A stretch of DNA of 64,000 bases from a virus (IMGVR_UViG_3300032053_011398), one strand, 5' to 3'. Positions 1 to 58,327 are shown, counted from the stretch's first letter. The notes: generated from the sequence alone by a model not told the origin. Translations and numbers: made by a program.

Positions 1-1150
1 TGGCCCCGAACCAGGAGCGCGGCATACCGATGATCGAGTAAAACAAGTCGGTCAACAGCTCGATGTCGTAAACATCGGGGATGTTCTGCGTGCCCTGGAG
101 CTTTTCGATGGTGTGCTCGAAGCCGGTTGGCTTGGCGACCCACAGGATCGTGTCCAGCGACCAGGCGTTGTAAAAAGCCTGGAAGCCCATCGGGTCGGTT
201 AGGTCGGAGGTCAGCCCCGTGCTGCCTTGGTTCTGGAGGCCGAAGGACAACTTGCTGCGGAGCGTCTGCTTCCACCGTTGCACGGTCTTCATCTGCTCCA
301 TCGGCGGCTGGTCTTTGGTGTCGATGTTGATGACATAGCGGTCGGGCTGAACCTGGGCGCGGTGAACGACCATCTGGTCGATGGCCAACCGGAGCTTTTT
401 GTAAATCCCCTGCGCCTCGTCGAAGATCGGCTCGCCATGTTCGCTGATGCGGAGGCGATACATGCGGCGGAAGTGGAGCATGTCCCAGGGATACCAAAGC
501 TCCTCGATGTTTTGTCCGTCGCTGATGGCCACGCGCTCAATAGGGGTCTTGTTGTCCGGGTGAACAAACGCGGCCTCTTTACTGGGCTTGTGACCCGTCC
601 AGCGAAAGCCTACGACCTTGCGGTTCCGTTCGAGCCAGTAGCGGCGAATATCCATCGGATGGATGAACGACATGCCCATCACGCCCTCGCCAGGGGCGTA
701 TTCCAACTTCTCAAAGTGATTGCCCAGGGCAGAAACGTAGTAAACTTGGGACGGCAGCAGTTCCTCAGCGTTGAGGTTAATGAGCATTCCATTCAAATCG
801 TCCTCAAACTCACGGTCGTTGCACTGATACCAGAGAGTGGCTGGGCTATTCTGGTCTTGCTGCGTAGCTTCGTCAACAATTTCCACTAGGGCGGCAGCCA
901 TCATGTCCCACCCTGCCATTTCATCCCACAATTGGAGCATCGCGTCGAACGTGACCGGACGGCGCATGTAGGCGTTGAACCTTGACCAGACATCGGGATT
1001 GGCGACGCGGCCAGCCTCCTGAAAATCCTTGAATAGCTCTTGATCTGCTGTGGGCGTGCCAGCACGCGGGACGAGGCTTCCGGTGGGCTGCCCGGATGTG
1101 CCGATCATCCCCAAATATTTTAGCAGGCTTGTCGCAGTCGTGTTTGCCAT
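1..1150 (-). CDS. Portal protein, T4 gp20-like (truncated at window edge)
   Basis: Not in the ORF track. Manual translation from ATG at 1150 gives MANTTATSLLKYLG...AAALVEIVDEAT...HGEPIFDEAQGIYKKLRLAIDQMVVHRAQVQPDRYVINID...IEKLQGTQNIPDVYDIE. This matches gp20 hallmarks (IYRxxRAPERRxFYID; IxTLPGxQNxxxxxDI). Confidence 0.85.
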   Translation of the reverse strand, partial: MANTTATSLLKYLGMIGTSGQPTGSLVPRAGTPTADQELFKDFQEAGRVANPDVWSRFNAYMRRPVTFDAMLQLWDEMAGWDMMAAALVEIVDEATQQDQNSPATLWYQCNDREFEDDLNGMLINLNAEELLPSQVYYVSALGNHFEKLEYAPGEGVMGMSFIHPMDIRRYWLERNRKVVGFRWTGHKPSKEAAFVHPDNKTPIERVAISDGQNIEELWYPWDMLHFRRMYRLRISEHGEPIFDEAQGIYKKLRLAIDQMVVHRAQVQPDRYVINIDTKDQPPMEQMKTVQRWKQTLRSKLSFGLQNQGSTGLTSDLTDPMGFQAFYNAWSLDTILWVAKPTGFEHTIEKLQGTQNIPDVYDIELLTDLFYSIIGMPRSWFGA

Positions 1151-1157
1151 ACGCTTT

Positions 1158-1164
1158 TAACTAC
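1158..1164 (-). promoter_or_regulatory. Putative late-promoter element GTAGTTA upstream of portal
   Basis: GTAGTTA-AAAGCGT-ATG. The same motif precedes many structural genes. Confidence 0.6.
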
Positions 1165-1210
1165 CGAAAAGAACGGGAACCCTTGCTAACGATTCCGTTC
1201 TATCGAGCGT

Positions 1211-2168: not shown

Positions 2169-2371
2169 GCTCTAACTACGTCCTGCAAGTCGAACTTGTT
2201 GCGCGGGCAAAAATACTCACCAAGGGCTTGGGTCACGACCTGGCGGAGCCACTTACGATCCAACTTTGGACGAATCGGCAGCCACGAGGGGACTTCGGCA
2301 GTGACCTCGCACACCATCCATCCGTTCACTTTTAAGCAGTAGAGCCGCACAACAATAACTCGCACACTCAA
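2165..2371 (-). CDS. Hypothetical protein (start may be GTG 2365)
   Basis: 68-aa ORF overlapping the next gene by 4 nt. CGTTCT motif upstream. Confidence 0.45.
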   Translation of the reverse strand: MSVRVIVVRLYCLKVNGWMVCEVTAEVPSWLPIRPKLDRKWLRQVVTQALGEYFCPRNKFDLQDVVRA

Positions 2372-2469
2372 CAGAACGGAACAGAAAGCAGCGCCGAGTC
2401 GCGCCTAAGCGCATTATGGATCAATTTGTCACTACTATTAACTTGCTGGATTTGGTTCTATACGGCGGT

Positions 2470-3030
2470 ATGCCAGCACGGATTGAACGCAAGTCCGGCG
2501 ACCACAATGGGCGCTTAACCCTGGTCAAAGAGTCGGAACCCGACCGCTGGGGCGGTCGGCAGTTCCTTTTCAAATGCGATTGTGGCAGTGAAGTCGTTGC
2601 CCGGTGGGGGATTACGAGGAGCTGCGGGTGCCTCCAGCGAGAAACGACAATTCACATCACCAACTATAAAAAGCGTCTTGGTTGTGGCGAAGCCTGCTTG
2701 AACTTTGTTTACAACCGCTATCTCATGCGGGCACGGAACAAATGCCTTGAGTTCGTCATCAGCAAGGCCCAGTTTTTGGCACTGACTCAGCAGGCGTGCC
2801 ACTATTGCGGGTGTCCTCCCAGCAATATCGAGACAAAATACCACGATGCCTACGGCACGTTCACGTATAACGGTCTTGACCGGGTTGATCCCAAACGCGG
2901 CTACCTGCTGAGCAACGTGGTGCCGTGCTGCCGAATCTGCAACGTGGCTAAATCTATCATGACAAAAGAGGAGTTCATCGCTTGGATTGAACGTGTTCAT
3001 AATCATCAATATGCGTGCCTTAGTGTATAG
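2470..3030 (+). CDS. HNH homing endonuclease
   Basis: CDCG...SCGCL N-terminus, then CHYCG...YNGLDRVDPKRGY...NVVPCCRICNVAK. Start placed at ATG 2470 after the GGTTCT motif. Confidence 0.85.
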   Translation: MPARIERKSGDHNGRLTLVKESEPDRWGGRQFLFKCDCGSEVVARWGITRSCGCLQRETTIHITNYKKRLGCGEACLNFVYNRYLMRARNKCLEFVISKAQFLALTQQACHYCGCPPSNIETKYHDAYGTFTYNGLDRVDPKRGYLLSNVVPCCRICNVAKSIMTKEEFIAWIERVHNHQYACLSV

Positions 3031-4045: not shown

Positions 4046-4119
4046 TCCGTTCTATTCGTTTGTGGTCAATGCGGGCACGGTCGGTGCGGATGCGTGGTGG
4101 TCAGTGCGGAGTCGGGCGC

Positions 4120-5686: not shown

Positions 5687-6295
5687 GTGAAGCAAATCGG
5701 TTTCATCGCCAACCAGGACGGGGCCGTCGTCAAATACGACCCCAGGATTCACGCTGTCCGCGAGCCTGCCCAGCCGCCGGGGCCGCTGACCCGGCACCAA
5801 CGGGCCACGCTCTATTTCAAGGCCCTTCGCGCCGCCAGCGCCCTGCTCCGCGAGGTTGGTTTCCAGACCGTAGCCGATGTGGGTCACTCCGGTTTCTGCA
5901 TCGAGATGGACCGGTTCATCCTGGAAATGATGGTTAAGGAGGCACCGCGCCTGGCCTATGTCACCAGCTATCCAGGCTACGTGTATGACCCACAGAATGT
6001 TACGGCCAGGGTCGAAATGGCTTCCTGCCCTACGGATAGCAACGATTACGTGATCCAGGTCGTCGCTTCGTATCCCAGAGGCACCTTTGCGCCGCGCTAT
6101 GTAATGATCCGCCAGAACTCCCCAGATGTGCTCAGGGAGGCATTCATGGGTATTCTGGCAGTGGCACGGACCTTCATCAGCAAAGACCCTCACTTGATGG
6201 CTAAAATTCAGGCCGCGCTGGCGAGGCGCGATCTGGAGAAAGACTTGGACCGGCTGAGCCGGGAGGACGCCCGGCAACTGCCGCCTATGGTATAG
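5687..6295 (+). CDS. Hypothetical protein
   Basis: Likely start GTG 5687 (VKQIGF...), after the terminator and a TGTTCT motif. In frame with track ORF 5369..6295. Confidence 0.55.
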   Translation: MKQIGFIANQDGAVVKYDPRIHAVREPAQPPGPLTRHQRATLYFKALRAASALLREVGFQTVADVGHSGFCIEMDRFILEMMVKEAPRLAYVTSYPGYVYDPQNVTARVEMASCPTDSNDYVIQVVASYPRGTFAPRYVMIRQNSPDVLREAFMGILAVARTFISKDPHLMAKIQAALARRDLEKDLDRLSREDARQLPPMV

Positions 6296-9200
6296 AGATG
6301 GCCAAGTTGCAACCCACGGCACGGCCCAGCGGCCCATCAAGGCTGGTGTTCAGCATAGTGTAGTTGCCGTTCATCTTGACCACCAATGACGAGCTGCCGC
6401 CGCCATCGAGATTGAGCGCGTTATAGACGGCGTAGTTCCGCATCAAAATGTCCACGATGTCACCCACGGCCATGCCGCCGTTGCCTCCCAACGATCCGCT
6501 CACACCTTCGGCCACACAGACGACCAGGGTGCTTCTGTCGCTCTTCACGCCAACAACGGTGCGGGCACGCTTGAGGTTATACCACGAGTTGCTGTTCGAG
6601 TAGCCGCTCATGGCGGTGAGCTGGTTCGTGCCTGATCCATAGATCGGAATGGTTTTGACGCCGTTCGTAACGACCTGGGCGCTGCCCGCAACGCCATTCC
6701 ACAAGGCCACGCCCTCCAGGACGTGTTTGTTGTCCACGTAGGCTCCGTCGCGGTGGACGACCGTGGCCATGCCGCTGACGCCGATGTTTAGCGCCGGGGC
6801 ATACGGCAGGATCGCGTAGCTCTGATTGGCGTAGCCAATACCGATAGGCTGAGGCTCGAAGGGCGAGAAAACGATGCCTGACGACGCCACAAATCCAACA
6901 TCCGCCGCGTTCGGGCTGGCAGACGGGAAGGGCAGGAAGAAGTTGCCATTGAAGGCCAGGTCAGCGCCCACGCTGGCAGCAAAGTCAAGGGTCGTCTGTC
7001 GAACCGTATCCCGCGAGCCGCCAGGGCTGGTGACGAAGGTGCTGGAATTTATGAGATTGACCACAGCTACGAACATGCGCGTGCCGTCCGGCATCACCAG
7101 CATATCCACGTAAATGTGGTCGTTGACGGACATCCGGCTGCCGATGTTCCAGGGCAAAATGTTGTAGGCCCCGCCAGGCACGGTGCCAGCCCAGGTGTAA
7201 AGATCGGCATAGACCAGTGCGACGGGCCGATTCGGGATCGGCGGAGCGGCTACGACCAGACGGTTGCCGTTGTTTGCAATATAGGCGGAAGGCCAGCGAT
7301 AGGTGAAGGCCGAGTCCACCACCCGAAGGCTGTTGCGTTCGACCTCCGGCACCCGGTTAGTTGGCAGCGGGTCTCCGTATCGCACCAAACTTTGGTAGGA
7401 ATTGGCCGCGAAGATGGGTGCCAACTCTCCCTGTTCGGCCAGCCACACATCGAGATCGCCGTTTCCACCGGCATCTTCGCGCCCGGAATAGAGCTTGAAG
7501 ACCAGCGGGCCGACCAACGGGGTGTTGCTGCCATACCAAACGCAGGGAAACGGCAATGCCGGGACTGAATCGGTGATACCTCTGGCTCGCACCAGGGCGT
7601 ATTCCACGCCGCTCGCTTTAACTGTCAGGATGCTGTCGGGATTAACCTCGGTCATGGACACATCGGCGGGCAGCGTTCCGTAGAAGGCATACTCACTGCG
7701 ATTCGTCAGGCCGGTGAAACCTACGGCGCGGATTGGTGTCGGGGCCGTAGGATAAAGCGTGCCGGTCGCGTAGAGGCGAGGCCGGGGCACCCAGGGCTTC
7801 CAGGAGATGTGAATAGTCGCTCTCTTGGCATACATCCTGAAGTTGATCTGATCGCCTGCCCTCACGTCCATCTTCGTGACGAACGTGCCCAAGCGCATTG
7901 GGAATCGGGTTGGAACCCCGGCGCGATAGCGGATGAGTTGCTTGTCGTTGCTGCTCACCGAAACGATGAACTCCAGAGTGCCACTGCCAGGAACCACCAA
8001 AACCGGCTGCTCGACGACATTCTTGCTGACGATAACCGTTGCGTGGCCTTCGATCAAACCAGCCGCGCCGTCGTCGTAAGTTTGCGGCACGACACCTTGG
8101 AACGGAACTCCCGTGTCCATGTGGTTCATGTAAACGTCCACGTCGCGCTGGGTCTCGTGGTCGCGGTAACGCACAACCATGCCGCCCGTGGCGGAGCCGG
8201 TGCAGAAGGAGTCCTGGCAGTCATAGACCACATCCACTTCGTCGCGCCCGACCAGGCTGTAGCCGGTTGTGTAAGCTAGGCTGCCCGCGTTGCCGTAGCA
8301 GGTGCCGTTGTAGGCCACGTAGCCGGGAGGAATTGTCGTGCTGGGATAGGGAATGACCAGTGGATTGCTGGTGCCGTTGCAGGCCAGGAAGGCATAAGCC
8401 ACACCGCAGTAGCTCCCGTTCGTGTAGGCCACAAAAGGATCATAGGCGGGCAGGATGCCATCAGTGCCGACCCACTCCAAAGTGATGCACGGATTGCAGT
8501 AACAGCGCGTTACCTGGTCAGCGGGGGCCACGTAAGGAGCCGGATTATAGAGCGGCTGGAGGACATGGAGCTTAGTAGCCCCATTGTATTCGCCGTAGCA
8601 GAACAGGCCCGCTGGCACGCATTTTGGGTCGTAGCAGGCGATGATGTCAGCGACCAGTGGGTAGATGGTGCCGGAAGCGTCCACGGTGTAGGTGCCGTTG
8701 GCGCTAGCCGTCGTAGTGCCCATCATGGCGACCAACGGGCCGACGTTGTGATAGCACGCGCCGTCAAAACGGGCGAATGGACCTGAAACCATCGAGTAAA
8801 CCGTGCCTTGCAGCTCGGCTGGATCGGGCCGGGTAACTCCAACCGGCCAGGAGACGAGATCGGCCCCACTCTCGTCGAGGTTGACGATGCCAACAATGCC
8901 GTTGTCAATGAACTCAGCGTCGGAAATGTCAACATTTGCCTCTGCGATTTTGAGGTAGGTTTGGAGGTCAGGGCTGAAAGCATCCGCCATAACCGGCACC
9001 GCGACCGAACGAGTGCTGTAACCGCCTGCGGTGAGCAGGTTCACGCTGATGACTGTCCCCGCATTCACATAGCCATTGGCCAAGTAGATGGCGACCTTGC
9101 CCCAAACCCGGCGAGGACGCTGGATGATCGTGGGGTAGGCGGGCATCATGAATGAAATTGTGAACGGACGCGATTCCTCGATGGCATAGGTCGAGTGGGC

Positions 9201-10475
9201 ATCGACTTCCAGAAGTCCTTCAGTCGCCGGGTCATACGAAGTCGTCCAGTTTTGATCGGTGTAGAACAGCCGGTGCGACTGCTCCGAAATGTCGGGCCTG
9301 CCTTCCAAGCTGAGGGTGACCGGCAGCGTTTCGGGCAAGTCAGTTTCATAGGTCTGGATAGCGGTCGGCGAGCTGCCCATGCGGCCTTCGGGCGTATCCG
9401 TATCGGTCAGCAGGTTCACCTTGCTGAACAGGACGGCGAAGCGCCGGGCACGCTGGCCTGCTCCACCCTCGGACGTGGATTCAGGGCACAGCCTGAACTC
9501 ATAAACCTGGGTCTTATCATAAAAGCACTTCACCCGGATGCGGAAGCGGAATGGCAATTGCGGGCCGACCGACGTGGCGAAACCTTCGGTCGTGATCTGG
9601 AGCCGGAGGTCGGCGGGCGCGGGCACGAAGTAAGTGTTGCTCAGAAACTCGTAGGGCAGGTCAATCGTGCCCGGAGCTTCGCCTCGGACAGACCAGTTGC
9701 CTGTGGGTGTGCGGACGACGACCTGGCCCGGCGCACGCACCGTCTCTGGATCAAGTTCGACCTGGAAATAAGTCGTGCCTGGCAGCAGGTAAATTTGCTC
9801 GGCCATTGCGGTCATAGGCATAGCCACGGTGGATGAAAAGCTCGCCTCGCCGATCTGCTCGCCAGTATAAGCATAGCCCAGGAATTGCATTGTCTTGCCC
9901 GGCTGCGGCTGGAGGCTGGCCTGAATTTCGTAGTCGCCGACCACGACCGTTGAGCTGTCGCCAGTGACAGTGTTGTTATCGTTGTCAATGACCTTGGAGA
10001 CGATCCGGTAAACACCGTGATCGGCGTTTTCGTAGTGGATCGTGGCGGTGGTGCCTGATGCCTGCCAAATGCTGTTCCGGTAAAGGTTCCAAGTGAGCGA
10101 CTGGTAGTTCCGGCCCCTGGGGTCGCTGAAGACGATTTGAGCGTCGATAGGGTCGCTCTTGCGGTATTGAATCTTGCTCCAATTGATGGAGGTCGTAATC
10201 GGGCCAATGGGAGTGCTAACAACTTGAACGAAAAAGCTTTGGTGCTGAGCAGAACCGTCGCCTTTAACGACGAACACGTCGATCAAAGTGGTGACCGGAT
10301 CAACCGGCGTGAACGAAATCACCGGGGTCGTTCCAGAGGCAATTTCGACCGTCGCCCAGACCGACCAAACGGACTGCAACGGAACCTGGCCGTCCACCAG
10401 GATGCTCAGCGCCGCCGATACGTTGGCAGTCAGAATCGGTGGTAGCGGCTTGCCAGCAAACATCAGCGTTATCAT
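6285..10475 (-). CDS. Large virion fibre/spike protein with C-terminal phosphodiester glycosidase (NAGPA/DUF2233-like) domain
   Basis: 1396 aa. Ig/PKD-like N-terminus and Cys-rich middle. C-terminal FNGNFF, RARTVVG, ALNLDGGGSSSL and RAVGCNL motifs. Confidence 0.75.
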   Translation of the reverse strand: MITLMFAGKPLPPILTANVSAALSILVDGQVPLQSVWSVWATVEIASGTTPVISFTPVDPVTTLIDVFVVKGDGSAQHQSFFVQVVSTPIGPITTSINWSKIQYRKSDPIDAQIVFSDPRGRNYQSLTWNLYRNSIWQASGTTATIHYENADHGVYRIVSKVIDNDNNTVTGDSSTVVVGDYEIQASLQPQPGKTMQFLGYAYTGEQIGEASFSSTVAMPMTAMAEQIYLLPGTTYFQVELDPETVRAPGQVVVRTPTGNWSVRGEAPGTIDLPYEFLSNTYFVPAPADLRLQITTEGFATSVGPQLPFRFRIRVKCFYDKTQVYEFRLCPESTSEGGAGQRARRFAVLFSKVNLLTDTDTPEGRMGSSPTAIQTYETDLPETLPVTLSLEGRPDISEQSHRLFYTDQNWTTSYDPATEGLLEVDAHSTYAIEESRPFTISFMMPAYPTIIQRPRRVWGKVAIYLANGYVNAGTVISVNLLTAGGYSTRSVAVPVMADAFSPDLQTYLKIAEANVDISDAEFIDNGIVGIVNLDESGADLVSWPVGVTRPDPAELQGTVYSMVSGPFARFDGACYHNVGPLVAMMGTTTASANGTYTVDASGTIYPLVADIIACYDPKCVPAGLFCYGEYNGATKLHVLQPLYNPAPYVAPADQVTRCYCNPCITLEWVGTDGILPAYDPFVAYTNGSYCGVAYAFLACNGTSNPLVIPYPSTTIPPGYVAYNGTCYGNAGSLAYTTGYSLVGRDEVDVVYDCQDSFCTGSATGGMVVRYRDHETQRDVDVYMNHMDTGVPFQGVVPQTYDDGAAGLIEGHATVIVSKNVVEQPVLVVPGSGTLEFIVSVSSNDKQLIRYRAGVPTRFPMRLGTFVTKMDVRAGDQINFRMYAKRATIHISWKPWVPRPRLYATGTLYPTAPTPIRAVGFTGLTNRSEYAFYGTLPADVSMTEVNPDSILTVKASGVEYALVRARGITDSVPALPFPCVWYGSNTPLVGPLVFKLYSGREDAGGNGDLDVWLAEQGELAPIFAANSYQSLVRYGDPLPTNRVPEVERNSLRVVDSAFTYRWPSAYIANNGNRLVVAAPPIPNRPVALVYADLYTWAGTVPGGAYNILPWNIGSRMSVNDHIYVDMLVMPDGTRMFVAVVNLINSSTFVTSPGGSRDTVRQTTLDFAASVGADLAFNGNFFLPFPSASPNAADVGFVASSGIVFSPFEPQPIGIGYANQSYAILPYAPALNIGVSGMATVVHRDGAYVDNKHVLEGVALWNGVAGSAQVVTNGVKTIPIYGSGTNQLTAMSGYSNSNSWYNLKRARTVVGVKSDRSTLVVCVAEGVSGSLGGNGGMAVGDIVDILMRNYAVYNALNLDGGGSSSLVVKMNGNYTMLNTSLDGPLGRAVGCNLAISIP

Positions 10476-10522
10476 CGGCTTAACTACGCGCTTTACGCCG
10501 TGGCCCAGCCATCGCTATCTTT

Positions 10523-11146
10523 TCAATCCGTGGCCAGTGCGCCGTAGATGAACTGCTGATCGACGAAAGCCAGCTCAGTATTCTCGATAATCATGGGGTT
10601 GACCCGGCCTTTATCCGGGAAAACCTCCTGGCCGGTGTAAAATGGATAGCCAACGTCCGCACCGACCTGGCGCACGCTGAAATGGAGGTTTTCCCTCTTG
10701 GCATCCTCGGCGGTATCCGGCAGAACGATAAGGCTTTCGCGGCGAACAGACGGCTCGATGAGCACAAAACGCCCCACGATCTTGAACGATTCCAACTCGA
10801 TCACGTCCCTGGTGAGCCTGGCGATGATGTCCTCGACGTGGAGGAAGCAATTCAGCACGCCCTTGATGTCGAAGGTGAGACTCTCGACTAAAGACGGTGG
10901 AAGCTGGAACAGCACAAGATCGCCAGCGATGTAAGTCTCTTTGGTGCTGTGTTTGCCATCCGGCCCATAACCCTCCATCGCGCCGACCGCGATCACTTCG
11001 CCGATCTCGTAGAGCTTCGCCCGATTGGGAAGAAGCTGGATCGCGCCCTTGAGCTTCGTTGCGTGTTGCTTGACCACCACTCTGCCCGCCATAACTCTCA
11101 TATTCATAGGCTTCGCACACCTTCTGCTTGTCCCCGCACTGACCAC
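10523..11146 (-). CDS. Co-chaperonin GroES-like protein with two tandem GroES domains
   Basis: Domain 1: MRVMAGRVVVKQ...GAIQLLP...GEVIAVG...GDLVLF. Domain 2: KIVGRFVLIEP...LIVLPDTA...VRQVG...GQEVF. Confidence 0.7.
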   Translation of the reverse strand: MVSAGTSRRCAKPMNMRVMAGRVVVKQHATKLKGAIQLLPNRAKLYEIGEVIAVGAMEGYGPDGKHSTKETYIAGDLVLFQLPPSLVESLTFDIKGVLNCFLHVEDIIARLTRDVIELESFKIVGRFVLIEPSVRRESLIVLPDTAEDAKRENLHFSVRQVGADVGYPFYTGQEVFPDKGRVNPMIIENTELAFVDQQFIYGALATD

Positions 11147-11171
11147 CTAAAAAGAACGCAGTTACTTTTGT

Positions 11172-12248: not shown

Positions 12249-12270
12249 GCTGTAGTTAAGAACGAAGTTT

Positions 12271-42018: not shown

Positions 42019-42021
42019 AAA

Positions 42022-46798: not shown

Positions 46799-46827
46799 TT
46801 GACACTGGGCTGAAGATCGTTTACTTT
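46799..46827 (+). promoter_or_regulatory. Sigma70-type early promoter
   Basis: TTGACA-N17-TACTTT, with a leader hairpin GGTTGAGC-GTGAT-GCTCAACC at 46841-46861. Confidence 0.75.
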
Positions 46828-48659: not shown

Positions 48660-48804
48660 TCGTTCTTCAATCCTGATTGACTGCATATCCAGAACTTAAA
48701 GCAGCGCATACTCTCTGTCAACATTTCTTTCCTAACAAGGTTGGGTTATTTTAAATGCTCAATAGAGGTGCATTAGATAGGTGAATGTCATCAGGTGTAG
48801 CCAA

Positions 48805-48855: not shown

Positions 48856-50310
48856 TTAACCGATTACGCTGCCAAAAGTTGTGGGGCTGTTGACAACGAG
48901 GCCACGGCAAAACATTTTCGAGTTAATCATTTTGCGTGCGAACGAAGTTGCGAACCCGCGCTGGTGGATGAAGTCCGGGAGCACCACGTCGGGCGTGGTG
49001 TAGAGCTTCTGGTATTCCGCCAGCACATATCCCGTCGTGAGGAACTGGTCGCCCTTGTGCCCGACCAGCCACTCGTTGACCGGAAAGTGCGGGTCAGCGA
49101 AGACCTTCTTGTTGCCGAGGTCACCCAGGTAGGTGACGCCCTGCATCTGCGTCCGGGCGTTGCGAGCCACGAACTGGGGCAGCGTGGCAACGACCGTTGC
49201 AGCCTGAAGACCGAGGAGCAGCCAGTTTCCGGCGACCATGTTCGTGGCCCCGAAGATGAAGTTGCTCGCCGTCTCGAAGGCGTCGATGATGGAGAACTTG
49301 TGGGTCTGGTAGTTCACCGAGGGCGGGGCCACGGCGTCCCATACCACGAAGCCAGCGTCGGCACGCGCCCGGAGGTCGAAGATCACCTGGCGGTGCTTTT
49401 GATAGGTCAACGCATTCGTCAGGGCGTTGAGCAGGACGCTCTCCGCCTTGATGTTATACATCGCCTGGAGGTTTTGGTCGGCTTCTTCGGACCACAGAGT
49501 CTTGAGCTTCATCACCTTCGCCGTAACCGGCGTGGAGCTGAGCTTCATCTCGTAGTCCTGGATGTTCAGGTTGCCTTCGGCGTTGAACGCATAGGTCACG
49601 CTGTAGGCTGCCGTTGCCCCCACACCCGTAACGGTGATGGCACCTGTGACGTAGTTGATCGTGCCGCCAGCGATAGTGCCGACCGGCAAGATACTGCCGT
49701 TGCTGTCGTCGGTGGTGACATCAGAACCAACGGTCACCGTCAAGGTGCCCGCACGGATCGGATACCACTCCAACTGACCGGCATTGCCGGACAGCACGCC
49801 CGACTCGTCCTGGACGAGTTCGTCACCGTCGTCATCGCGGTCAACCGCGCCTTGCAGGGCACGCCACATGGGGGCGCCCGCAGGGGTGCGGCCTTTCCGG
49901 CGACCGGTCACAATGTCCATGTAAACGATCTGGCTCACCGGCCCGGCCATAGGCTGAAGCGCGACGAGCTGGTCGATCACATCGTTCTCCGACATGTTCG
50001 CAATGATGGGGAAAATCCACTTGTCGAACGTGCCCAGGGACGTGGTGCGCGTCACTTCGTCCAGTTGGCCGAAGCGGCTGCGGCAGTTTTCGAGCATGAT
50101 CGCCGTATAGGCCCGTTTGTGTTCGGGCATGTGGGCGACGAACTCCTTCCAGCCTTTGGCTTCCCAAAGGCCCTTGGGATTTTTGTCGGTAATTCCGACC
50201 GGCGTTTCGGCCAACTTATAGCCCCATTCCAGCGTCTCCGTGAAACGGGCGATATGACCGCCGTTGGTCGCCAGCATCGGCCTACCGGTTAGTGCATCTT
50301 GTATAACCAT
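48856..50310 (-). CDS. Major capsid protein (T4 gp23-like)
   Basis: TAIMLEN, LVALQPMAGPVSQIVYM, VTAKVMKLKTLWSEEADQNL and RGFATSFARKMIN. Confidence 0.92.
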   Translation of the reverse strand: MVIQDALTGRPMLATNGGHIARFTETLEWGYKLAETPVGITDKNPKGLWEAKGWKEFVAHMPEHKRAYTAIMLENCRSRFGQLDEVTRTTSLGTFDKWIFPIIANMSENDVIDQLVALQPMAGPVSQIVYMDIVTGRRKGRTPAGAPMWRALQGAVDRDDDGDELVQDESGVLSGNAGQLEWYPIRAGTLTVTVGSDVTTDDSNGSILPVGTIAGGTINYVTGAITVTGVGATAAYSVTYAFNAEGNLNIQDYEMKLSSTPVTAKVMKLKTLWSEEADQNLQAMYNIKAESVLLNALTNALTYQKHRQVIFDLRARADAGFVVWDAVAPPSVNYQTHKFSIIDAFETASNFIFGATNMVAGNWLLLGLQAATVVATLPQFVARNARTQMQGVTYLGDLGNKKVFADPHFPVNEWLVGHKGDQFLTTGYVLAEYQKLYTTPDVVLPDFIHQRGFATSFARKMINSKMFCRGLVVNSPTTFGSVIG

Positions 50311-50364
50311 AGGTTTCGATTTTCTCTTTGTTATTTACTGTTCCGGCTAGTCGGCTGACAACCA

Positions 50365-52014
50365 TCAGCCGTTCACGCTCGCCTTCGACAGCCGCGTCAC
50401 CATTCCAATGGCTTCGTTAAGGCCGCGAGGATCGGTCGGCGTTGCACTGATGATCGTTAACCCTTCGGTAACCGGGGCCTTGGGGCTACCTTCGGCTGGC
50501 GGAGCCGCAGGTTTCTTTCCCTCCGTCACGGACGGAGCCGCCGCCCCTGACTTTTTGGTCTCATCGACCTTGCCAGCGGGTGGATTGGTTTTGCCTTCGC
50601 AAAGGGCGCGGATGGCAACCAGGTCACGAGGCTTGGTCGCTTCCTTGAGCGCCTTCTGGATTTCGGGCGTCTGAGCCTTCTCGGCGAACTCCAGTTGGAT
50701 GACGCGCCTGCCCATCTCAGTCACGTCCGCCTTATACTTCGAGGCGAGCTGCTGGAGGGCTTCGGACGCCATCATGAAGCGGCGGCGATACTTGGCCGAC
50801 TCGGCTTCATTGACCTTGGCCAGTTGACGCCAGGCTTGGCCGCGCTCCACGACTTCGTTGAGCAGGGCCGATTGACGACCGACCTGTTTGATGGACTCGC
50901 CGAGCTTGTTCTTGAAGGTCAGGCCCGTCTGCGCGACAGCCTTGATGACCTGCATGAGCTTGGTGTTGTCCTCGTTCAGCTTCGAGGCCCGTTTGCCGGG
51001 CGCGAGCTGCGCTTCCTGCCAGGTGTTCTCAATGGATTTGATCTCGTCATGAAGTTGCTGGCCATTCCAGGAACGCTTCGCGTCCTCGGCAACAAAATTG
51101 GCAACCTCCTGATGGAGCGCACCCAGTTGAGACATCCCTTCGGCAAACCGCTGCGGGCCGAGCTTGGAAGGTTCCAAACCCCGGAACGTAGCAATCGTCG
51201 TTTTGATTTCGTTCAGGTTCATAGCTTTTTCTTGGGATGATTCCGTTGTTTTCACCGGAGTTGACGCCCCGGATGTTGGAGCCTGAGAACCCCGCTCAGC
51301 TTCCAAAGTGGTTTGTTGCAGTGGGACAGCCGGGGCCGCAGGAGCAACTGGCGCTGTCGTCTCGGAAATAGGCGCAACACCTGAAGACGGCAAAGCAGCC
51401 TTTTTCTCGGCTGCCTCGGCGGTAACTGCCTCGCGTTGTGGCTTCATCTCGGCAGTCTCGAAGGACGGCTTCATCACAATGTCCGCGCCTTCGCACACGT
51501 AATCTTCTTGGACATCATCCGCGCCATCTGAGGCGCGAACCAAGGAGCCGAACCCACGGGTCGAAACCAAAGGATTGTAATTGGTGGTCTCGACAAGGGT
51601 CTTGATGCGGTCGCCATCTGGGAAGCCAGGGCCAGAGAGGACTTGAATTTCGCCCACAACCTCCCATATCTCCTTGCCCTTTTCATCGGTGCCTTTTTGA
51701 AGCTTGGCCTCGGTGAGCAGGTGGGAAATGGGGGAGCGCCAGTTAACCGCGCCATCAGTCGGGTGCTCCAAGAGGCCGAACGCGGCACTCTTGCCGATGG
51801 ACTGCATGAGCACGGAGCCAGGCTCCAAATTCTTCTCCCAAACACGCTTGCCGTAGCGCCGACCATTGCCGTTGAGCGTGTCGCACAGGCTAATGCGGCC
51901 AGGCATCCGCGTCCGGCTGCCCCCGTTGGGGAGGCTTTCGGTGATGATCTTGTTCCGATCAACAATGAAAGGGACGGCCCCTTTCAAGCCTTCAGCAAGG
52001 TATTGTCGTGCCAT
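50365..52014 (-). CDS. Prohead protease (gp21-like) fused to coiled-coil scaffold
   Basis: NGNGRRY, FGLLEHP, ISH, VSTRGFGS and DIVMKPS, followed by a linker and coiled coil. Confidence 0.85.
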   Translation of the reverse strand: MARQYLAEGLKGAVPFIVDRNKIITESLPNGGSRTRMPGRISLCDTLNGNGRRYGKRVWEKNLEPGSVLMQSIGKSAAFGLLEHPTDGAVNWRSPISHLLTEAKLQKGTDEKGKEIWEVVGEIQVLSGPGFPDGDRIKTLVETTNYNPLVSTRGFGSLVRASDGADDVQEDYVCEGADIVMKPSFETAEMKPQREAVTAEAAEKKAALPSSGVAPISETTAPVAPAAPAVPLQQTTLEAERGSQAPTSGASTPVKTTESSQEKAMNLNEIKTTIATFRGLEPSKLGPQRFAEGMSQLGALHQEVANFVAEDAKRSWNGQQLHDEIKSIENTWQEAQLAPGKRASKLNEDNTKLMQVIKAVAQTGLTFKNKLGESIKQVGRQSALLNEVVERGQAWRQLAKVNEAESAKYRRRFMMASEALQQLASKYKADVTEMGRRVIQLEFAEKAQTPEIQKALKEATKPRDLVAIRALCEGKTNPPAGKVDETKKSGAAAPSVTEGKKPAAPPAEGSPKAPVTEGLTIISATPTDPRGLNEAIGMVTRLSKASVNG

Positions 52015-52016
52015 GA

Positions 52017-52045
52017 TTACATGTAGTCTGCAAAACTACATGTAA
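52017..52045. promoter_or_regulatory. 11-bp inverted repeat abutting the protease start codon
   Basis: TTACATGTAGT-N7-ACTACATGTAA. Confidence 0.55.
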
Positions 52046-52164
52046 CCACAAACGGGCGCAGTTGAAGTTGTAAATGTCAACGACTTGCACCTAAGCCGAT
52101 TGAAAACTAATTTGAAACTGCTAATATCCTTGATGTGGAAATTCCATGCTGTAATGTGGAATTT

Positions 52165-52927: not shown

Positions 52928-53658
52928 ATGAAGCGCCGAAAGGCACTGTAAACCGTCTTGCCGTCGCCTTCTTTGTGGTCCGGCATGAGCGAAGTGCCGG
53001 GCTGGGCCGGAGTCAAAGCCTCAGCGACTTTGACCGTGATCTCAGCCGGATTCACGTTCATTGCCGCCACGACCGATTCGGCCATCGTTTCCAGCTCTTC
53101 CGGCGCGGGGTTCTGACGGCCCAGGATCGTGTCCATCGCCCCCCTGGCACCAGCCGACATGGTTTGATGGCCCATTTGCTGGGCGGCGGCAACGGATGGC
53201 GGAGGCGTTGGGCGCTCAATGGATTTCGGCGGGGCCGGAACCTGGGACGGGTCGATCTGCTTCATGACGTTGGGCGTCACGTCCGGCGCGACCAGGGCAG
53301 CGGTCGGCTGGATCAATTCCGCGCCATCGACGTTGGCCATGAACTGTGGTTCAGCCGGGCCTTCAGCCGAGGGTAAAGGGTCGTTACGGACGCCGGGGAT
53401 GGTCTCGCCGCCGAGCGTCGTATCAACCGGCTTCGCTTCGGAGGGGATGATCGACTCGTCATCGCTCTCGGTCATGCCGATGATGCTGGCCACGACCGAA
53501 CTTTGGCGGGCCTTGGCCCGGAGTTTGTCATCGTTTTTGTCCTTCGGCGGCTGGATGCGCAACGGCAATGGACGGCGGGGCTTACCGGCCAAGACCGGTG
53601 GAACGTCCCCACTTTCGGCCACTCTGCGGCCCAAGATTTGGTCAACAAGGTTGCTCAC
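52924..53658 (-). CDS. Pro-rich putative head protein
   Basis: Repeated DxILGR and VAE/MTE/MAE motifs. Confidence 0.55.
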   Translation of the reverse strand: MSNLVDQILGRRVAESGDVPPVLAGKPRRPLPLRIQPPKDKNDDKLRAKARQSSVVASIIGMTESDDESIIPSEAKPVDTTLGGETIPGVRNDPLPSAEGPAEPQFMANVDGAELIQPTAALVAPDVTPNVMKQIDPSQVPAPPKSIERPTPPPSVAAAQQMGHQTMSAGARGAMDTILGRQNPAPEELETMAESVVAAMNVNPAEITVKVAEALTPAQPGTSLMPDHKEGDGKTVYSAFRRFM

Positions 53659-54119
53659 CGTTCAACTCCAAGGATTTGCCGGATCGGACAGCCCTGGGCG
53701 TCCTGGGGCGACTCGACCGAGGCGGGTTCAGTGGTTGCGACACCTTCGCCAGGAGGGCCTTCCTCGGCCCCCAGGGATATGTCCTGACCTTCATACTCCC
53801 CCTGCTGCTTCAGCATGATGTCCGCCATCTTGGCAAGCTCTAAGGCCCCTTCCCGGCCAATGGCAAAGACTAACTTTACGGCAGTCTCATTGTCCATTAG
53901 CAGAAACCGTGCGGTCACGTCCGGGCGGTTGCCCTGTGACCACAGGTTGGCAAGCTCATCAATCTCAGCTTCGGGTGTCGCCTCAGAATTGGATGGCTCA
54001 GCTTTTGGCGCGGAAGACTCCGGCCCTGTGATCTTCTTGGCCTTGAACTTCTTTTCCTTCTCGTCAGTGTCAGGTTTGTCATCGGCCTCGCCGAGAATCA
54101 GCTTAATGATGTCAGCCAT
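53655..54119 (-). CDS. Acidic putative head protein
   Basis: IIKLILGE at the N-terminus and IRQILGVE at the C-terminus. GTAGTTA upstream (54128-54134). Confidence 0.55.
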   Translation of the reverse strand: MADIIKLILGEADDKPDTDEKEKKFKAKKITGPESSAPKAEPSNSEATPEAEIDELANLWSQGNRPDVTARFLLMDNETAVKLVFAIGREGALELAKMADIMLKQQGEYEGQDISLGAEEGPPGEGVATTEPASVESPQDAQGCPIRQILGVER

Positions 54120-54130
54120 ATACGCCCTAA

Positions 54131-55042
54131 CTACGCGGGCACATCGACGAAGGCATAGTGGCCAAGACTATCCACCGGGATGCCCATGCCGCTGTGGCCC
54201 CCGGCATACTTGGGCAGGCGCAGGAAGAAGGGCCGGTAGATCGGCTCCTGACCGTAACGCTTGCTGATATAGGACATGACTTCGTAGGATTCCCGATCCA
54301 GAAGCTTGCGTTCCGGCCCGCTTACGCTGCTCGCAACATCTTGGTGCCGCAGATGGGGATGCTCCAGATCGAGACAATTCTGCATTTGGCCATCCAGGTT
54401 GATCCCGCCAGCAAATCGCGCCCGGATCGTGTAATCACAGTGCTCCTCACCAAATTTTCCAAACCTAGCGTCGAAATAACCGATCTTGTCGAACACGGCG
54501 CGGGTCATCGACATCATCATGCCAGTCATCCGGGGCAACAATTTGACCATGTAGCCCCGCGAGTTGACGGTCATCCAGCGGTAGGTTTCCGGCAGGCCGG
54601 ATGCTGCCGGAGTTGCCACGGTGAAATCGCAGAAGCAGAACATGCCCACGCCCAGGTCTTCATGGCCGTGAGCGTAAAAGTTTACAAAATCTCCCAGGAC
54701 GTGGAGATCATCGTTCATGAGGCAAAGATGGTCATACTGCCCTTCTCCGAAAAGCTTCAGTATTCGATTACTATTGCCAGCCACACCCAGGTTAGTGCTG
54801 CCCAAGAAGACTCGGATGTTTGACCCTAAGTGTTTTCCATCCCACTCCTCGGCCAAAAGGTCTATCCGCGACGCCAACAACTTTGGAGTTGGACCCTTCA
54901 AAAATGTTTCCGTTCCGTCCCTTTGCCCATTATCCTCAACAATATGAATATCATAAGCCGAGCAGTGCTTTAACAGCCCAGAAAGCGTCTCTTTGAGCGC
55001 GTCAATGCGGTTGAAAGTCAGAATCGAAACAAGCGATTTCAT
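54131..55042 (-). CDS. Glycosyltransferase family 2
   Basis: SILTFNR, IVEDNG, NLGVAGNSN, LMNDD and IGYFDARFGKFGEEHCDYTIR. Confidence 0.85.
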   Translation of the reverse strand: MKSLVSILTFNRIDALKETLSGLLKHCSAYDIHIVEDNGQRDGTETFLKGPTPKLLASRIDLLAEEWDGKHLGSNIRVFLGSTNLGVAGNSNRILKLFGEGQYDHLCLMNDDLHVLGDFVNFYAHGHEDLGVGMFCFCDFTVATPAASGLPETYRWMTVNSRGYMVKLLPRMTGMMMSMTRAVFDKIGYFDARFGKFGEEHCDYTIRARFAGGINLDGQMQNCLDLEHPHLRHQDVASSVSGPERKLLDRESYEVMSYISKRYGQEPIYRPFFLRLPKYAGGHSGMGIPVDSLGHYAFVDVPA

Positions 55043-55424: not shown

Positions 55425-55817
55425 CTATTTTTGACCTGACAAGTAAGCTACTGCTATCCGAGCAGAAGCATTGGGCAGCATGGCGATGTCCGCGTGCATT
55501 TTTAGCACGAACCACGAACATCGGAAAACCAGGGAGATGAGCCAAACCAGCTTCAGGCTGATGCTGGCCAGTAAGACTGCGAGCAACACGGTCATCCGAG
55601 GCGTGCCCTCCGGGCTGGCCGGATGAAACAGGAACCAGAACCCAGTCACGATCCAGAGCGCCAAGAGGACGATGACCATGATCCAGTCGTAGGGCGTCCA
55701 CCAGCCTGCCTCTTTAAGCGCCTGCCATTGGGTCATCGGCTTTTCGATGATGACGGTGCCCTGGGGCTGGCTGGGCGCGAGCGGTGCCCCAGTTGGAGTT
55801 GGGATTGCGTCTGCCAT
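55425..55817 (-). CDS. Membrane protein (2 TM)
   Basis: Two long hydrophobic segments. Confidence 0.6.
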   Translation of the reverse strand: MADAIPTPTGAPLAPSQPQGTVIIEKPMTQWQALKEAGWWTPYDWIMVIVLLALWIVTGFWFLFHPASPEGTPRMTVLLAVLLASISLKLVWLISLVFRCSWFVLKMHADIAMLPNASARIAVAYLSGQK

Positions 55818-55818
55818 A

Positions 55819-57312
55819 CTATGCCTGTGTAAATGTTACCTGGGCGTGCGCCCGGATAAGGTTCATCGCTTCGGCAGCGTTCAGATCGTCTGGCAAACAC
55901 CAAGAGGACCGACCGCCCTTTTTGCCTGATTCCAGCTTTAGTGACGACTTGATTTCGTCAACCGGATTGATGAAGCGCAAGCGCAGAGGAGTGGTCTGCC
56001 TGCCGATGGAAAAGATCAACTGCATCCCCTCCGTTTTGAGCCGGTCTTTGTGCCGGTAGCACGTCTCGCCCTGGTGCATTACCCGGCGAAAGTTTTCATC
56101 CAAGAAAGCCAAGATTTCCTCCTCGCGCTCCGACTCCGCGAAGGCCGCATCGTTGATTGAGAGGGTGGGACGGATGATGGGCACGCGGGCATGGCGGGAA
56201 CCGAGCAGCTTATGGCTAATGGTAATTTCACCCAGGCCGAAGTTGGATGCCTTCAGCTCGCAACCCTCACGCAACCCGCAGTTGATACAGGAGCGGTGAT
56301 GCTTCTGGAACATGATTCCAAAGCACTTGAACCTGTCATTCCTGACCTCCGGCACCGGCACCCCGCACACCCGCATAGCTTCCTTGATGCCCTCGTTATC
56401 CTTGAAGCGATCAAACTGGTGCTGAGCTGCCAGCATCAGCGCCCGCTTGCGCGTGATGTCGTCGATGGTGCGCGGAATCTGCACGCCGAAAAATTGGAGT
56501 AGAGTCGCCATCGCCGCCGTCTGGCGCGGATCATCTTCGATGTGGGTCTTCATAAACAAACACTTTTTCTTGATATGGTTGTGGCAATTTTGGAATGACT
56601 CCACGCTGATGCCCAGGGCTTCGGCCATGTGCTCGTAGCGTATGCGTATCCGCAGCGGTTTGCCGGTGCGCTGACCGCGCTCCGCGTCTTGCCGGGCATA
56701 GAACAGGGTGTCTTCGCTGGGCGATAGCAGCTCCTCCAGCACAGCCTTTTCCACCTTCTTGAGTCGGGAAGCGACATGATCGACCAACTCCGCAAAGGCC
56801 ATCGCGTCGCAACCGGAATCAATGTCGGCAACCTGGAATCCAGCGTCAGGATCGTCGATGCGGATTTCCCGTGGCTTGGTAGAGACCGGGCTGAAGTTGT
56901 TGCGTTGATCCTTGGGCGGAGGTTTGATGCCGGTGCGCTTTTCCGTGAAGCGATGCTTCTGCACCAGGCTACAAATATGGTTGCGGAGGGCCGTTTTGTA
57001 TTGCTTGAAGTATTCGACCCGGTTCCGGCAACGGTTGAGCAGGCCCCGGCTTATCATCTCGCTGGTCTTGGCCCAGCACTCGGCTATCAAGTCTTCATAG
57101 TGAAGCTCGACGCAGGACTGATCGACATAGCCTGCAACGACCTTGTTAATCAAGTTTCCCATGTCATTGACCATCTCCTCATAAACGGGCGGGCGCAACT
57201 CGGCCTCGGCGAACACGAGGAACATGCGGTTCCGAGGAGCGGCAAAGCAGCCCAGTTCAATGCAGATGGGCGCAGGTGAGTTGCCCCTGACATCAATGGC
57301 TATGTGAATCAT
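55819..57312 (-). CDS. Sigma-factor-like protein with C-terminal extension
   Basis: Region-2-like YEDLIAECWAK...YFKQYKTALRNHICSL, region-4-like LKKVEKAVLE...YEHMAEALGIS, and a C-terminal CFG...CxxC...C cluster. Confidence 0.55.
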   Translation of the reverse strand: MIHIAIDVRGNSPAPICIELGCFAAPRNRMFLVFAEAELRPPVYEEMVNDMGNLINKVVAGYVDQSCVELHYEDLIAECWAKTSEMISRGLLNRCRNRVEYFKQYKTALRNHICSLVQKHRFTEKRTGIKPPPKDQRNNFSPVSTKPREIRIDDPDAGFQVADIDSGCDAMAFAELVDHVASRLKKVEKAVLEELLSPSEDTLFYARQDAERGQRTGKPLRIRIRYEHMAEALGISVESFQNCHNHIKKKCLFMKTHIEDDPRQTAAMATLLQFFGVQIPRTIDDITRKRALMLAAQHQFDRFKDNEGIKEAMRVCGVPVPEVRNDRFKCFGIMFQKHHRSCINCGLREGCELKASNFGLGEITISHKLLGSRHARVPIIRPTLSINDAAFAESEREEEILAFLDENFRRVMHQGETCYRHKDRLKTEGMQLIFSIGRQTTPLRLRFINPVDEIKSSLKLESGKKGGRSSWCLPDDLNAAEAMNLIRAHAQVTFTQA

Positions 57313-58327
57313 CGTCTCCATAAACTTCATACTCCCCGGATCGTCGTGGGTTTAGAACTTCGACCATTTCGTGGTAAAGGTCTTGCGCGGTTCGTGCATT
57401 CTTTCCGTGGCGCTCCCCAACTTCCGCAACGGAATCAGGGTCTTTGTCCCCGATTTCTACTTCATCAAAAATCTGTTTGGCTTCGACCAGCGCGGCCAGT
57501 TGGGCGATGGTCGGAATTTTGAACCGCATACCTCCATAATTGGCGCACAAATATTTGCCATGAACGGGCCAAGTGAATGGCGTATTGGGCATGTCGAACA
57601 GGCTTACGAAGTGGGTGTAGCTGTAGGCGGCTCGAACCAGGTCTTCTTCGGTGAAGGGCACTCGGATGCGGCGATACATTTGGTCGCGCAGGGCCACGAG
57701 CGCCCAAGAATAAAAAAATTTGGCCAGCTCTATCGAGATGCCGTAGGCGTAAGCCGCGCCCTTGACCGCCGCCTGCTTGTCGTGGTCTTCCTCCAGGATA
57801 CACTCAATCAGGAAGTGGATGGCACCGATCTCCTGGGGCGTGCCCCAGCGGCAGGTCAGGTTGGCCAACTTGGCGCGAACCTCCGTCGCCATGTCATGCT
57901 TATCGACTGCGTGATCCTCGGCCCCAAAGAACTTCTCCAAATTGTCGCTGGTGACGTGGTAGCGTTTACGAAACTGGTTTACCTTTACCAGCTCGCTGCG
58001 AAAGGCATTCTTGGCACATTTACTGAACCAAGCGAACAGCTTACCCTTTTTGCGCTGCCAGCGCAGCAGCCACTTCACCACCTTCTCCTGCGCGGCGGAT
58101 ACGAGGATGTCCAGATCAACCGTGTAATGGTAACCCTCGTGCTGAGCCAGCCGCTCGAACATTTGCGTCGAACCCACAATGATCTCCTCCAAGACAAGCA
58201 TGGCCTCCGTGTGCCTGCCCAGAGAATTAAGCTCCTTCCAGCGAAGAGCCAGCGGCTCCAAGTAGCTGGCCGGGAAAATGTGTTCCCCGGCAACCGCAGG
58301 AACGACCAGTGTGGGGTTTTTGGACAT
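57293..58327 (-). CDS. Phage sigma factor (T4 gp55-like region 2)
   Basis: DILVSAAQEKVVKWLLRWQRKKGKLFAWFSKCAKNAFRSEL, plus HTH-like segments. Confidence 0.6.
   Translation of the reverse strand: MSKNPTLVVPAVAGEHIFPASYLEPLALRWKELNSLGRHTEAMLVLEEIIVGSTQMFERLAQHEGYHYTVDLDILVSAAQEKVVKWLLRWQRKKGKLFAWFSKCAKNAFRSELVKVNQFRKRYHVTSDNLEKFFGAEDHAVDKHDMATEVRAKLANLTCRWGTPQEIGAIHFLIECILEEDHDKQAAVKGAAYAYGISIELAKFFYSWALVALRDQMYRRIRVPFTEEDLVRAAYSYTHFVSLFDMPNTPFTWPVHGKYLCANYGGMRFKIPTIAQLAALVEAKQIFDEVEIGDKDPDSVAEVGERHGKNARTAQDLYHEMVEVLNPRRSGEYEVYGDDDSHSH

Follow-up and report, generated by a model that had tools for sequence, protein, structure and literature searches.

The DNA analysed here (the window) is a 64,000-nucleotide stretch of a viral genome, IMGVR_UViG_3300032053_011398, with ~57% G+C and the majority of its genes on the minus strand. 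Two adjacent genes encode sigma-like proteins of 344 and ~500 amino acids, and three classes of short motif lie just upstream of start codons: TTGACA-N17-TANNNT (class E), CGTTCT (class M) and GTAGWTA (class L). Family scans found a T4-type core that includes the Gp23 capsid protein, prohead protease, UvsX/RecA and a gp32-like protein. Further genes encode portal, tail sheath, tube-like and fibre-like proteins, a gp5-like hub with lysozyme, primase, SbcC-like and SbcD-like nucleases, and a GroES-like protein. We propose, with moderate confidence, that the window is from an uncultured ~242-kb T4-like phage with three promoter classes, which relies on host RNA polymerase and encodes two sigma factors that retarget it.

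The window phage has no close cultured relative: megablast with 20 kb of the window against 50,697 phage records gave 0 matches, and the window capsid protein is 28% identical to that of the nearest cultured phage. The window itself comes from a contig of 242,565 bp, present in ENA ERZ27247916, with a fragment in SRR9651337. IMG/VR contains 52 related loci, on contigs of up to 238 kb. Three relatives recur below: G001 (238 kb, taken whole; capsid 95% identical), G005 (230 kb, with terminal repeats, taken whole; capsid 69% identical) and G002 (a 98-kb partial record, 43% complete). Upstream words in the window were counted in the 40 nt before 68 called starts, and gene classes were assigned from PHROGs.

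GTAGWTA matches the window 14 times versus 2.9 expected, and none of 100 shuffles reached 14. For eight of these sites, a called start follows 4-20 nt downstream on the same strand (binomial P 6e-13). In an unbiased count of hexamers upstream of starts, TAGTTA ranks first (6 versus 0.22 expected), followed by CGTTCT and then by GTAAACA. The top upstream words in G001 are GTAGTTA (10 versus 0.39 expected, P 1e-11), with GTATTTA, GTAATTA and GTTTACA also present, and the top word in G002 is TAGTTAG. In G005, TAGTTA is found in 15 upstream regions for 23 genome copies (P 1e-17), and GTTTACA is also enriched. The resulting consensus is GTAGTTA, with variants GTATTTA, GTAATTA and GTAGCTA; RRGC follows the box, and no positions near -35 are conserved. 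Gaps to the start codon peak at 4 nt and at 7-8 nt. L fronts five of ten virion genes in the window, versus none of 16 other annotated genes (Fisher P ~0.004, computed by hand). In the window and G001, it precedes genes for the portal, sheath, fibre-like and tube-like proteins and the gp5-like hub, as well as genes for very large proteins of unknown function. Orthologues of the genes at 53655, 45073 and 41041 retain GTAGTTA or a one-base variant within diverged flanks.

CGTTCT, the second-ranked hexamer, occurs in eight of the 68 upstream regions (0.72 expected, P 7e-7), and seven of its 39 sites in the window are within 20 nt of a start (P 2e-7). GTTCTA (P 7e-9) and CGTTCT (P 1e-6) are enriched upstream of genes in G001, as is TGTTCT in G005. 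A T-rich tract at -5 to -3 upstream of GTTCT is the sole conserved upstream feature, with none near -35, and gaps to the start codon peak at 6-10 nt. In the window, M fronts the primase, SbcC-like and GroES-like genes and small open reading frames (ORFs); in G001, it fronts genes for a DnaB-like helicase and a DnaD-like loader, and a ribonucleotide-reductase fragment. The SbcC-like gene has (C)GTTCT at a distance of 7-10 nt in six genomes, including L003, L015, L049, L033 and L051. The gene-class sorting described in the earlier note, with GTAGWTA at virion genes and CGTTCT at replication, regulatory and chaperone genes, holds for the primase, SbcC-like, GroES-like and helicase genes on one side and the virion genes on the other.

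Several other repeated sequences are found in the window. We considered TGTAAACA as a -30 box for CGTTCT and rejected it, since it lies 10-11 bp upstream at only two genes; elsewhere it is a dispersed pseudo-palindrome on both strands, in some cases inside coding sequence. Handle-like units (GGTCAATGCGG, GGTCGGTGCGG and GGTCAGTGCGG) are located at the predicted start of CGTTCT-driven transcripts (4055-4110 and 11133-11146), and none was found in G001, G002 or G005. Another sequence, TTTTGTAAACAWW or equivalently TGTTTACA, is dispersed on both strands, often within coding sequence (e.g. 15235, 18065, 28253, 37945 and 40339). It is found at the same place in an orthologous G001 gene, and it resembles the early-promoter -10 region GTTTACATT.

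TTGACA-N16-18-TANNNT occurs three times in the window versus 0.54 expected. Two of these sites had been described in the earlier note as preceding a plus-strand block, and both are indeed intergenic and face plus-strand genes. The TACTTT -10 at the second is too weak for a standard sigma-70 scan, and such a scan gave no overall excess in the window (11 versus 7.3). In G001, there are 28 TTGACN-N16-18-TANNNT sites versus 10.8 in shuffles, 21 of them intergenic, and many share ccctnTTGACr-N14-GTTTACATT with an ATG 6-9 nt downstream. Since the generic scan shows no excess, the E class is defined by its own extended consensus and not by the textbook one; TTGACr-N14-GTTTACATT reads as a clear sigma-70-type promoter family. 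The third site in the window, TTGACA-N17-TAAGTT (48693-48721, minus strand), has a -10 that overlaps AGTTCT, and may be a hybrid E/M promoter. A near-identical TTGACAG...TTTAAGTTCTGG is found in G001 at 210712, before an unrelated position.

Both sigma-like ORFs are conserved and adjacent in relatives. By sequence, the proteins form separate, unannotated families. We folded alignments of the 344-aa family (A1) and the 500-aa family (A2), with a mean predicted local distance difference test score (pLDDT) of 69-70. For the 344-aa model, the 50 best matches in Foldseek are sigma chains without exception, and they cover 250-370 alignment columns. An exhaustive structural aligner, run against 48,161 chains, placed sigmaB (8x6g_H) first, with a Z score of 11.2, and T4 gp55 from the clamp-activated late complex (7d7d_F) second, with a Z score of 10.9 and a root-mean-square deviation (rmsd) of 5.0 over 123 of 137 residues. 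Many region-2 structures match at Z 9-10 with rmsd 2.3-3.0; the protein thus has a sigma-2 fold, as does its ~500-aa neighbour (below), consistent with the claim of the earlier note that there are two neighbouring sigma-like ORFs. Residues 273-334 form a helix-turn-helix (DeoR, Z 6.4; SigF region 4, Z 5.8; Mu C, Z 5.5), and the match to sigma-4 is weaker than in the ~500-aa protein.

A library-wide profile search yielded 120 representatives of the 344-aa family. A 53-sequence profile aligned by hhalign to residues 6-116 of T4 gp55 with P 0.002 over 100 columns; hhalign gave no significant result for a 9-sequence profile against T4 gp55 and gp33, or for a 12-sequence profile against gp55. Pfam Sigma70_r2 matches weakly in four of nine family members (best E value 0.016) and Mor in two of nine, and the language-model neighbours of the protein are viral Sigma70_r2 clusters (score 0.96). 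PHROGs searches with both sigma ORFs returned nothing but a hint of “late transcriptional activator” (E value 0.0097), and profile searches of PDB sequences with the sigma proteins returned no match. We also looked for a clamp-binding tail common to several proteins, as in T4 gp55, gp33 and gp43; the GEYxIY tail was found in the 344-aa protein only. Separately, 23 of the 120 family representatives are 490-780 aa long and carry an intein (e.g. L015:723-2765). It interrupts FSK|CAKNAF directly before the invariant Cys; the junctions are ...WFSK|(S/C)LSGDT... and ...VVHN|CAKNAF. The FSKCAKNAF helix aligns with ITQACFNAF of gp55, and the window copy is without an intein.

The start of the ~500-aa protein is ambiguous (57330, 57321, 57312 or 57234), and residues are numbered here from 57234. 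Residues 10-96 match sigma-2 (SigE N-terminal domain, Z 8.1; sigma70, Z 8.0), and residues 138-232 match sigma-4 (SigH, Z 7.9; SigD4, Z 8.0; sigmaE region 4; range Z 6.8-8.0). Whole extracytoplasmic function (ECF) or sigma-28 chains align across both domains at Z 8.2-8.6, and 48 of the 50 best hits in a second-look structural search are sigma chains. Four invariant cysteines (C304, C316, C319 and C325) follow the sigma domains. Residues 369-471 match YjbR (2fki; Z 7.8, rmsd 2.8, 92 of 118 residues) and DUF419 (2a1v; Z 7.3), and Foldseek matches this part of the model, where pLDDT is 71-91, to the C-terminal domain (CTD) of T4 MotA (1kaf) with a probability of 0.91 and a template modelling score of 0.44. 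The “double-wing” DNA-binding fold is common to YjbR and MotCF (PMC7641849, PMC2988021). By sequence, tblastn of the 503-aa protein against the 50,697 phage records gave no match, Pfam Sigma70_r2 and Sigma70_r4 gave no match in the 500-aa family, and all 56 database clusters of that family are unnamed and without a Pfam domain. We also looked for a cognate box for the double-wing domain ~12 bp upstream of the -10, and found no conserved positions. In G002, the orthologue (G002:C1:48675-50691, L069) matches in three pieces spread over two frames; the match breaks off for ~390 nt after profile position 75, and an insertion, intein or frameshift might account for this.

No further sigma factor, and no sequence-detectable T4-type gp55 or gp33, was found in G001 or G005. 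In the complete relatives, gp45-slide_C and Sigma70_r2 had no match, and the T7-type and beta-subunit families of phage RNA polymerase were also unmatched, although the T7-type control matched nowhere either. We attempted to pair each sigma with a motif by presence and absence across relatives, and no comparison paired a sigma with a motif. In G002, the 344-aa gene was not detected in the 98 kb of the record, and TAGTTAG boxes are still present. A CGTTCT 145 nt before the gp32 gene was rejected as a promoter because it lies within conserved coding sequence.

Table 1. Sigma genes, motif sites, core genes and corrected starts in the window. Gaps are measured to the start codon.
Feature	Position	Strand	Context
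344-aa sigma factor	57293-58327	-	gp55-like sigma-2 domain, middle helical domain, C-terminal helix-turn-helix
ECF-like sigma, ~470-500 aa	55819-57330	-	sigma-2, sigma-4, Cys4 motif, double-wing (YjbR/MotA-CTD-like) domain
L, GTAGTTA	1158-1164	-	7-nt gap to portal gene 2-1150
L, GTAGTTA	2173-2179	-	4-nt gap to ORF 1737-2168
L, GTAGTTA	10481-10487	-	5-nt gap to 1396-aa ORF 6285-10475; G001 orthologue has GTAGTTA, 4-nt gap
L, GTAGTTA	12252-12258	+	faces ORF 12271-12462; back to back with primase CGTTCT
L, GTAGTTA	19453-19459	-	4-nt gap to tube-like gene 18639-19448
L, GTAACTA	complement of 19453-19459		faces gp5-like gene, ATG 19467
L, GTAGATA	28213-28219	-	20-nt gap to tail sheath gene 25973-28192
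L, GTAGATA	29435-29441	-	4-nt gap to fibre-like gene 28261-29430; overlaps upstream stop codon
L, GTATTTA variant	32910-32916	-	4-nt gap to ORF 32264-32905
L, GTAATTA	38993-38999	-	faces gene 38437-38988; overlaps SbcC-like CGTTCT
L, GTAGTTT	42019-42025	-	abuts ATG of gene 41041-42018; L003 and L006 keep GTAGTTT or GTAGTTA
L, GTAGTTA and GTAGATA	45535-45541 and 45495-45501	-	72 and 32 nt before gene 45073-45462
L, GTAGTTA	54128-54134	-	8-nt gap to ORF 53655-54119; kept in L002 (GTAATTA) and L028
M, CGTTCT	1196-1201	+	9-nt gap to ORF 1211-1423
M, CGTTCT	2373-2378	-	before ORF 2165-2371
M, CGTTCT	4048-4053	+	then 7 nt, three handle-like repeat units, lipoprotein-like ORF (ATG 4120)
M, CGTTCT	11153-11158	-	then 7 nt, handle TGGTCAGTGCGG, GroES-like gene (ATG 11107)
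M, CGTTCT	12259-12264	-	10-nt gap to primase ATG 12248
M, CGTTCT	20586-20591	+	9-nt gap to hub-like gene 20601-21518; motif kept in G001 orthologue
M, CGTTCT	38999-39004	+	8-nt gap to SbcC/gp46-like gene 39013-40962
E, TTGACA-N17-TACAGT	45589-45617	+	intergenic; ATG 45628; orthologous site in L003 is TTGACC-N17-TACATT
E, TTGACA-N17-TACTTT	46799-46827	+	intergenic; before 46839/46843 ORF (DUF932)
Gp23 capsid protein	48856-50310		family scan
Prohead protease	50365-52014		family scan
UvsX/RecA	59687-61120		family scan
gp32-like protein	61124-62611		family scan
Corrected start	45628		ATG of gene called at 45619
Corrected start	11107		ATG of GroES-like gene called at 10523-11146, behind repeat handle
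Corrected start	4120		ATG of ORF called at 4060, behind repeat handles
Corrected start	12248		ATG of primase gene

Two virion genes have other features at their starts. GTAAATA before the capsid gene was considered as an L site and rejected, as it is not conserved in ~45 relatives. The capsid leader (50311-50364) is 35-40 nt, nearly G-free and A/C-rich across ~45 related loci, and may be a translation enhancer in a system that lacks Shine-Dalgarno sequences. A hairpin, ATGTAGT-N7-ACTACAT (52015-52050, minus strand), is located just before the ATG of the prohead-protease gene; L003 and L002 have a similar hairpin (GTAGT...ACTAC), and more distant relatives have GTAGAC or GTTTAC words there. Within the ORF at 35770-38430, GTAGATA-gt-ATG occurs in frame at 36187-36198 (minus strand), and a nested product of 139 aa might have its promoter and start there. 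The window also contains three HNH/endonuclease VII-type homing endonuclease genes (2416-3030, 24778-25350 and 32822-33625).

The E, M and L words all lie mostly 4-10 nt before starts. Shine-Dalgarno cores are at background frequency, preceding 10-14% of starts versus 7-8% of random 12-mers. The usual spacing from a -10 element to the transcription start is 5-7 nt. Because the motifs are 4-10 nt from starts that lack Shine-Dalgarno sequences, this spacing would give leaders of 0-4 nt for all three classes, and hence nearly leaderless messages. L and M boxes are back to back or overlapping at divergent gene pairs (12252/12259, 38993/38999 and 19452/19453), and this layout is kept in relatives; G001 has a back-to-back pair at the position matching the junction of the tube-like and gp5-like genes. 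The distance from motif to ATG is not fixed. The ATG of the GroES-like gene is ~45 nt after CGTTCT in the window, with the handle, and G001 has GTTCT-N8-ATG with no handle. Similarly, GTAGTTA gaps range from 4 to 28 nt among orthologues of gene 45073, and the nearer L box of the window copy, GTAGATA, has a gap of 32 nt. Retention of the motif while the distance to the ATG changes is more easily explained by a promoter in the DNA than by a signal for translation.

Together, these observations suggest the following scheme. The host primary sigma factor would read E promoters, which front accessory genes of unknown function. M, consisting of the T-rich tract and CGTTCT, would be a -10-only element for the primase, SbcC-like, helicase, helicase-loader and GroES-like genes. 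L (GTAGWTA, or more broadly GTA-N-T/A-TA then RRGC) would likewise consist of a -10 element alone, akin to the T4 late box, and would serve portal, sheath, tube, fibre and baseplate genes. Transcription would begin at the start codon or a few bases from it, giving leaderless messages, and two adjacent sigma-70-family proteins would retarget the polymerase, the 344-aa protein to L and the ~500-aa protein to M. Two new motif classes and two new sigma factors are the simplest match. By homology, the 344-aa gp55-like sigma most likely reads the L box; the ~500-aa ECF-like sigma, extended by a zinc part and a double-wing, most likely reads M, by elimination and with some help from the CGT in the M word. 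The earlier note had proposed a host-sigma to middle-sigma to late-sigma cascade. Motif enrichment, gene-class sorting and the sigma folds bear that proposal out in part; the promoter role of the motifs, the assignment of each sigma to a motif, and the temporal order are all inferred. Timing could be set as in T4, with the gp55-like sigma made early and late transcription awaiting replication.

Several observations weigh against this scheme. The overlap of a few codons between the two sigma genes suggests that they are expressed together, not in strict succession, so a sequential relay is not indicated; nor is any class-specific promoter conserved before either gene. At the curated cut-off, Pfam Sigma70_r2 and Sigma70_r4 match neither sigma protein of the window, and the structural Z scores of the ~500-aa protein (7-8.6) are in the “middling” range of the aligner. 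M lacks the -35 element that an ECF-type sigma normally requires. CGTTCT is not enriched across the window as a whole (39 versus 32 expected), and antisense GTTCT is also raised near starts in relatives (9-13 versus 3-4.5 expected), an excess for which divergent gene pairs account only in part. M also fronts the hub-like gene and an Ig/Hoc-like gene. Lastly, the capsid and prohead-protease genes are without a conserved L box, in the case of the capsid gene across ~45 relatives.

What other explanations could account for these data? Only one of the two proteins might be a free-standing sigma factor, with the other serving as an activator or appropriator. For example, the 500-aa protein could act like MotA on the host-sigma holoenzyme, or both proteins could act jointly on one class, like SPO1 gp33/gp34, with a host alternative sigma reading the remaining class. 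The genes are adjacent and overlapping, the double-wing is the DNA-binding fold of MotA (PMC7641849), and M resembles the CGT-type -10 of ECF sigmas, possibly also present in the host. However, the 500-aa protein has sigma-2 and sigma-4 in the right order, which an activator would not need, and there is no conserved box at -30 upstream of M or L. We regard this arrangement as unlikely. Slightly less likely again are real promoters with no temporal cascade, for example if both sigmas are produced at once and L, coupled to replication as in T4, is read later, or if M and L differ in strength and not in time. The apparent co-transcription of the sigma genes and the lack of a conserved M box before the gp55-like gene are consistent with this, as is the finding that T4 gp55 is made early while late transcription waits for the sliding clamp (PMC2988020). 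Nonetheless, M and L divide the genes in the manner of middle and late classes, and this alternative differs from our preferred scheme only in how timing is set.

An alternative explanation of a different kind is that the motifs act in RNA, as endoribonuclease sites at which polycistrons are trimmed to leaderless messages, or as signals to the ribosome or an initiation factor in place of the Shine-Dalgarno sequence. The motifs do occupy the ribosome-binding-site window where Shine-Dalgarno cores are absent, some L boxes run into the preceding gene's stop codon, as coupling signals do, and the hairpin before the protease gene contains GTAGT. Such a role is hard to reconcile with a distance to the ATG that differs between sites and between orthologues (1 to 38 nt), with CGTTCT at a fixed 7 nt before non-coding repeat handles, or with the promoter-like, back-to-back motifs at divergent gene pairs. 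Furthermore, T-11, A-10, T-7 and A-6 of the T4 late box also occur in the L box, and the window encodes a gp55-like sigma. We consider an RNA signal improbable, the least likely of these alternatives.

The scheme with two phage sigma factors and three promoter classes has parallels in T4, SPO1 and the ECF sigmas, and differs from each. T4 gp55 is a sigma-2-only protein of ~185 aa with a C-terminal clamp-binding tail, and works with a separate gp33, whereas the window sigma has 344 aa, with extra sigma-3/4-like domains in one chain. As in T4, a -10-only box without a -35 precedes virion genes, a phage sigma has gp55-type sigma-2, and there is a T4-like core; the sigma genes of the window are in an operon-like run with gp32 and UvsX. 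The T4 late promoter is a lone 8-bp -10 box, TATAAATA, at positions -13 to -6 with no -35 element, and is transcribed with gp55, gp33 and the gp45 clamp (PMC2988020). In contrast, GTAGWTA matches TATAAATA at four of seven aligned positions, beyond any listed T4-family variant (PMC2988020), the window box is 4-8 nt from the start codon, predicting near-leaderless messages, and no gp33 or gp45-type family is detectable by sequence. According to the review of T4 late genes, no “fused late-transcription sigma” has been found (PMC2988020). T4 middle transcription relies on sigma appropriation by MotA and AsiA with a MotA box at -30 (PMC2988021, PMC6755090), and T4 gene 46 and uvsX have middle promoters (PMC2988021, PMC2988020). 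M likewise fronts a middle-type set (gp46-like, primase and helicase genes), but the window has no conserved -30 box, its -10 word is CGTTCT rather than TAtaaT, and the double-wing is fused to a complete ECF-like sigma, with no MotA N-terminal domain seen.

The ~500-aa protein resembles ECF (group 4) sigmas with C-terminal extensions in having sigma-2, sigma-4 and an added C-terminal domain, and in the CGT-containing -10 word. Unlike them, it is phage-encoded, and its extension consists of the Cys4 motif and a YjbR-like double-wing. In ECF promoters, a CGT-type -10 is preceded at 16-17 nt by an AAC-type -35 element, whereas no such element accompanies CGTTCT. In Bacillus phage SPO1, a sigma cascade proceeds through gp28 and then gp33/gp34. 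As in SPO1, host sigma would act on early promoters, with two additional classes left to phage sigmas; in contrast to SPO1, which is of an unrelated lineage, the sigma genes of the window are adjacent and probably co-expressed, and the order of events is a prediction.

The strategy of retargeting the polymerase is already known from T4 and SPO1; the two sigma families are newly recognised here. Both are invisible to Pfam and PHROGs, and hence are “hypothetical” in >100 environmental phage clusters. The 344-aa protein links gp55 to full-length sigmas, and the ~500-aa protein joins an ECF-type sigma to the MotA DNA-binding fold; both bear on the origin of the split and appropriated sigma systems of T4. 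We tentatively raise the possibility, which we think doubtful at present, that this clade keeps an unsplit form of the T4 transcription machinery: a late sigma with gp55-type sigma-2 and sigma-3/4-like domains in one chain, which would be the fused sigma mentioned above, and a middle sigma and MotA-type activator in one protein, both driving almost wholly leaderless genes from -10-only promoters. The three words would allow genes of unknown function in the clade to be sorted into expression classes by sequence. The clade would also represent a large phage in which nearly all genes are without Shine-Dalgarno sequences and, as predicted here, without leaders.

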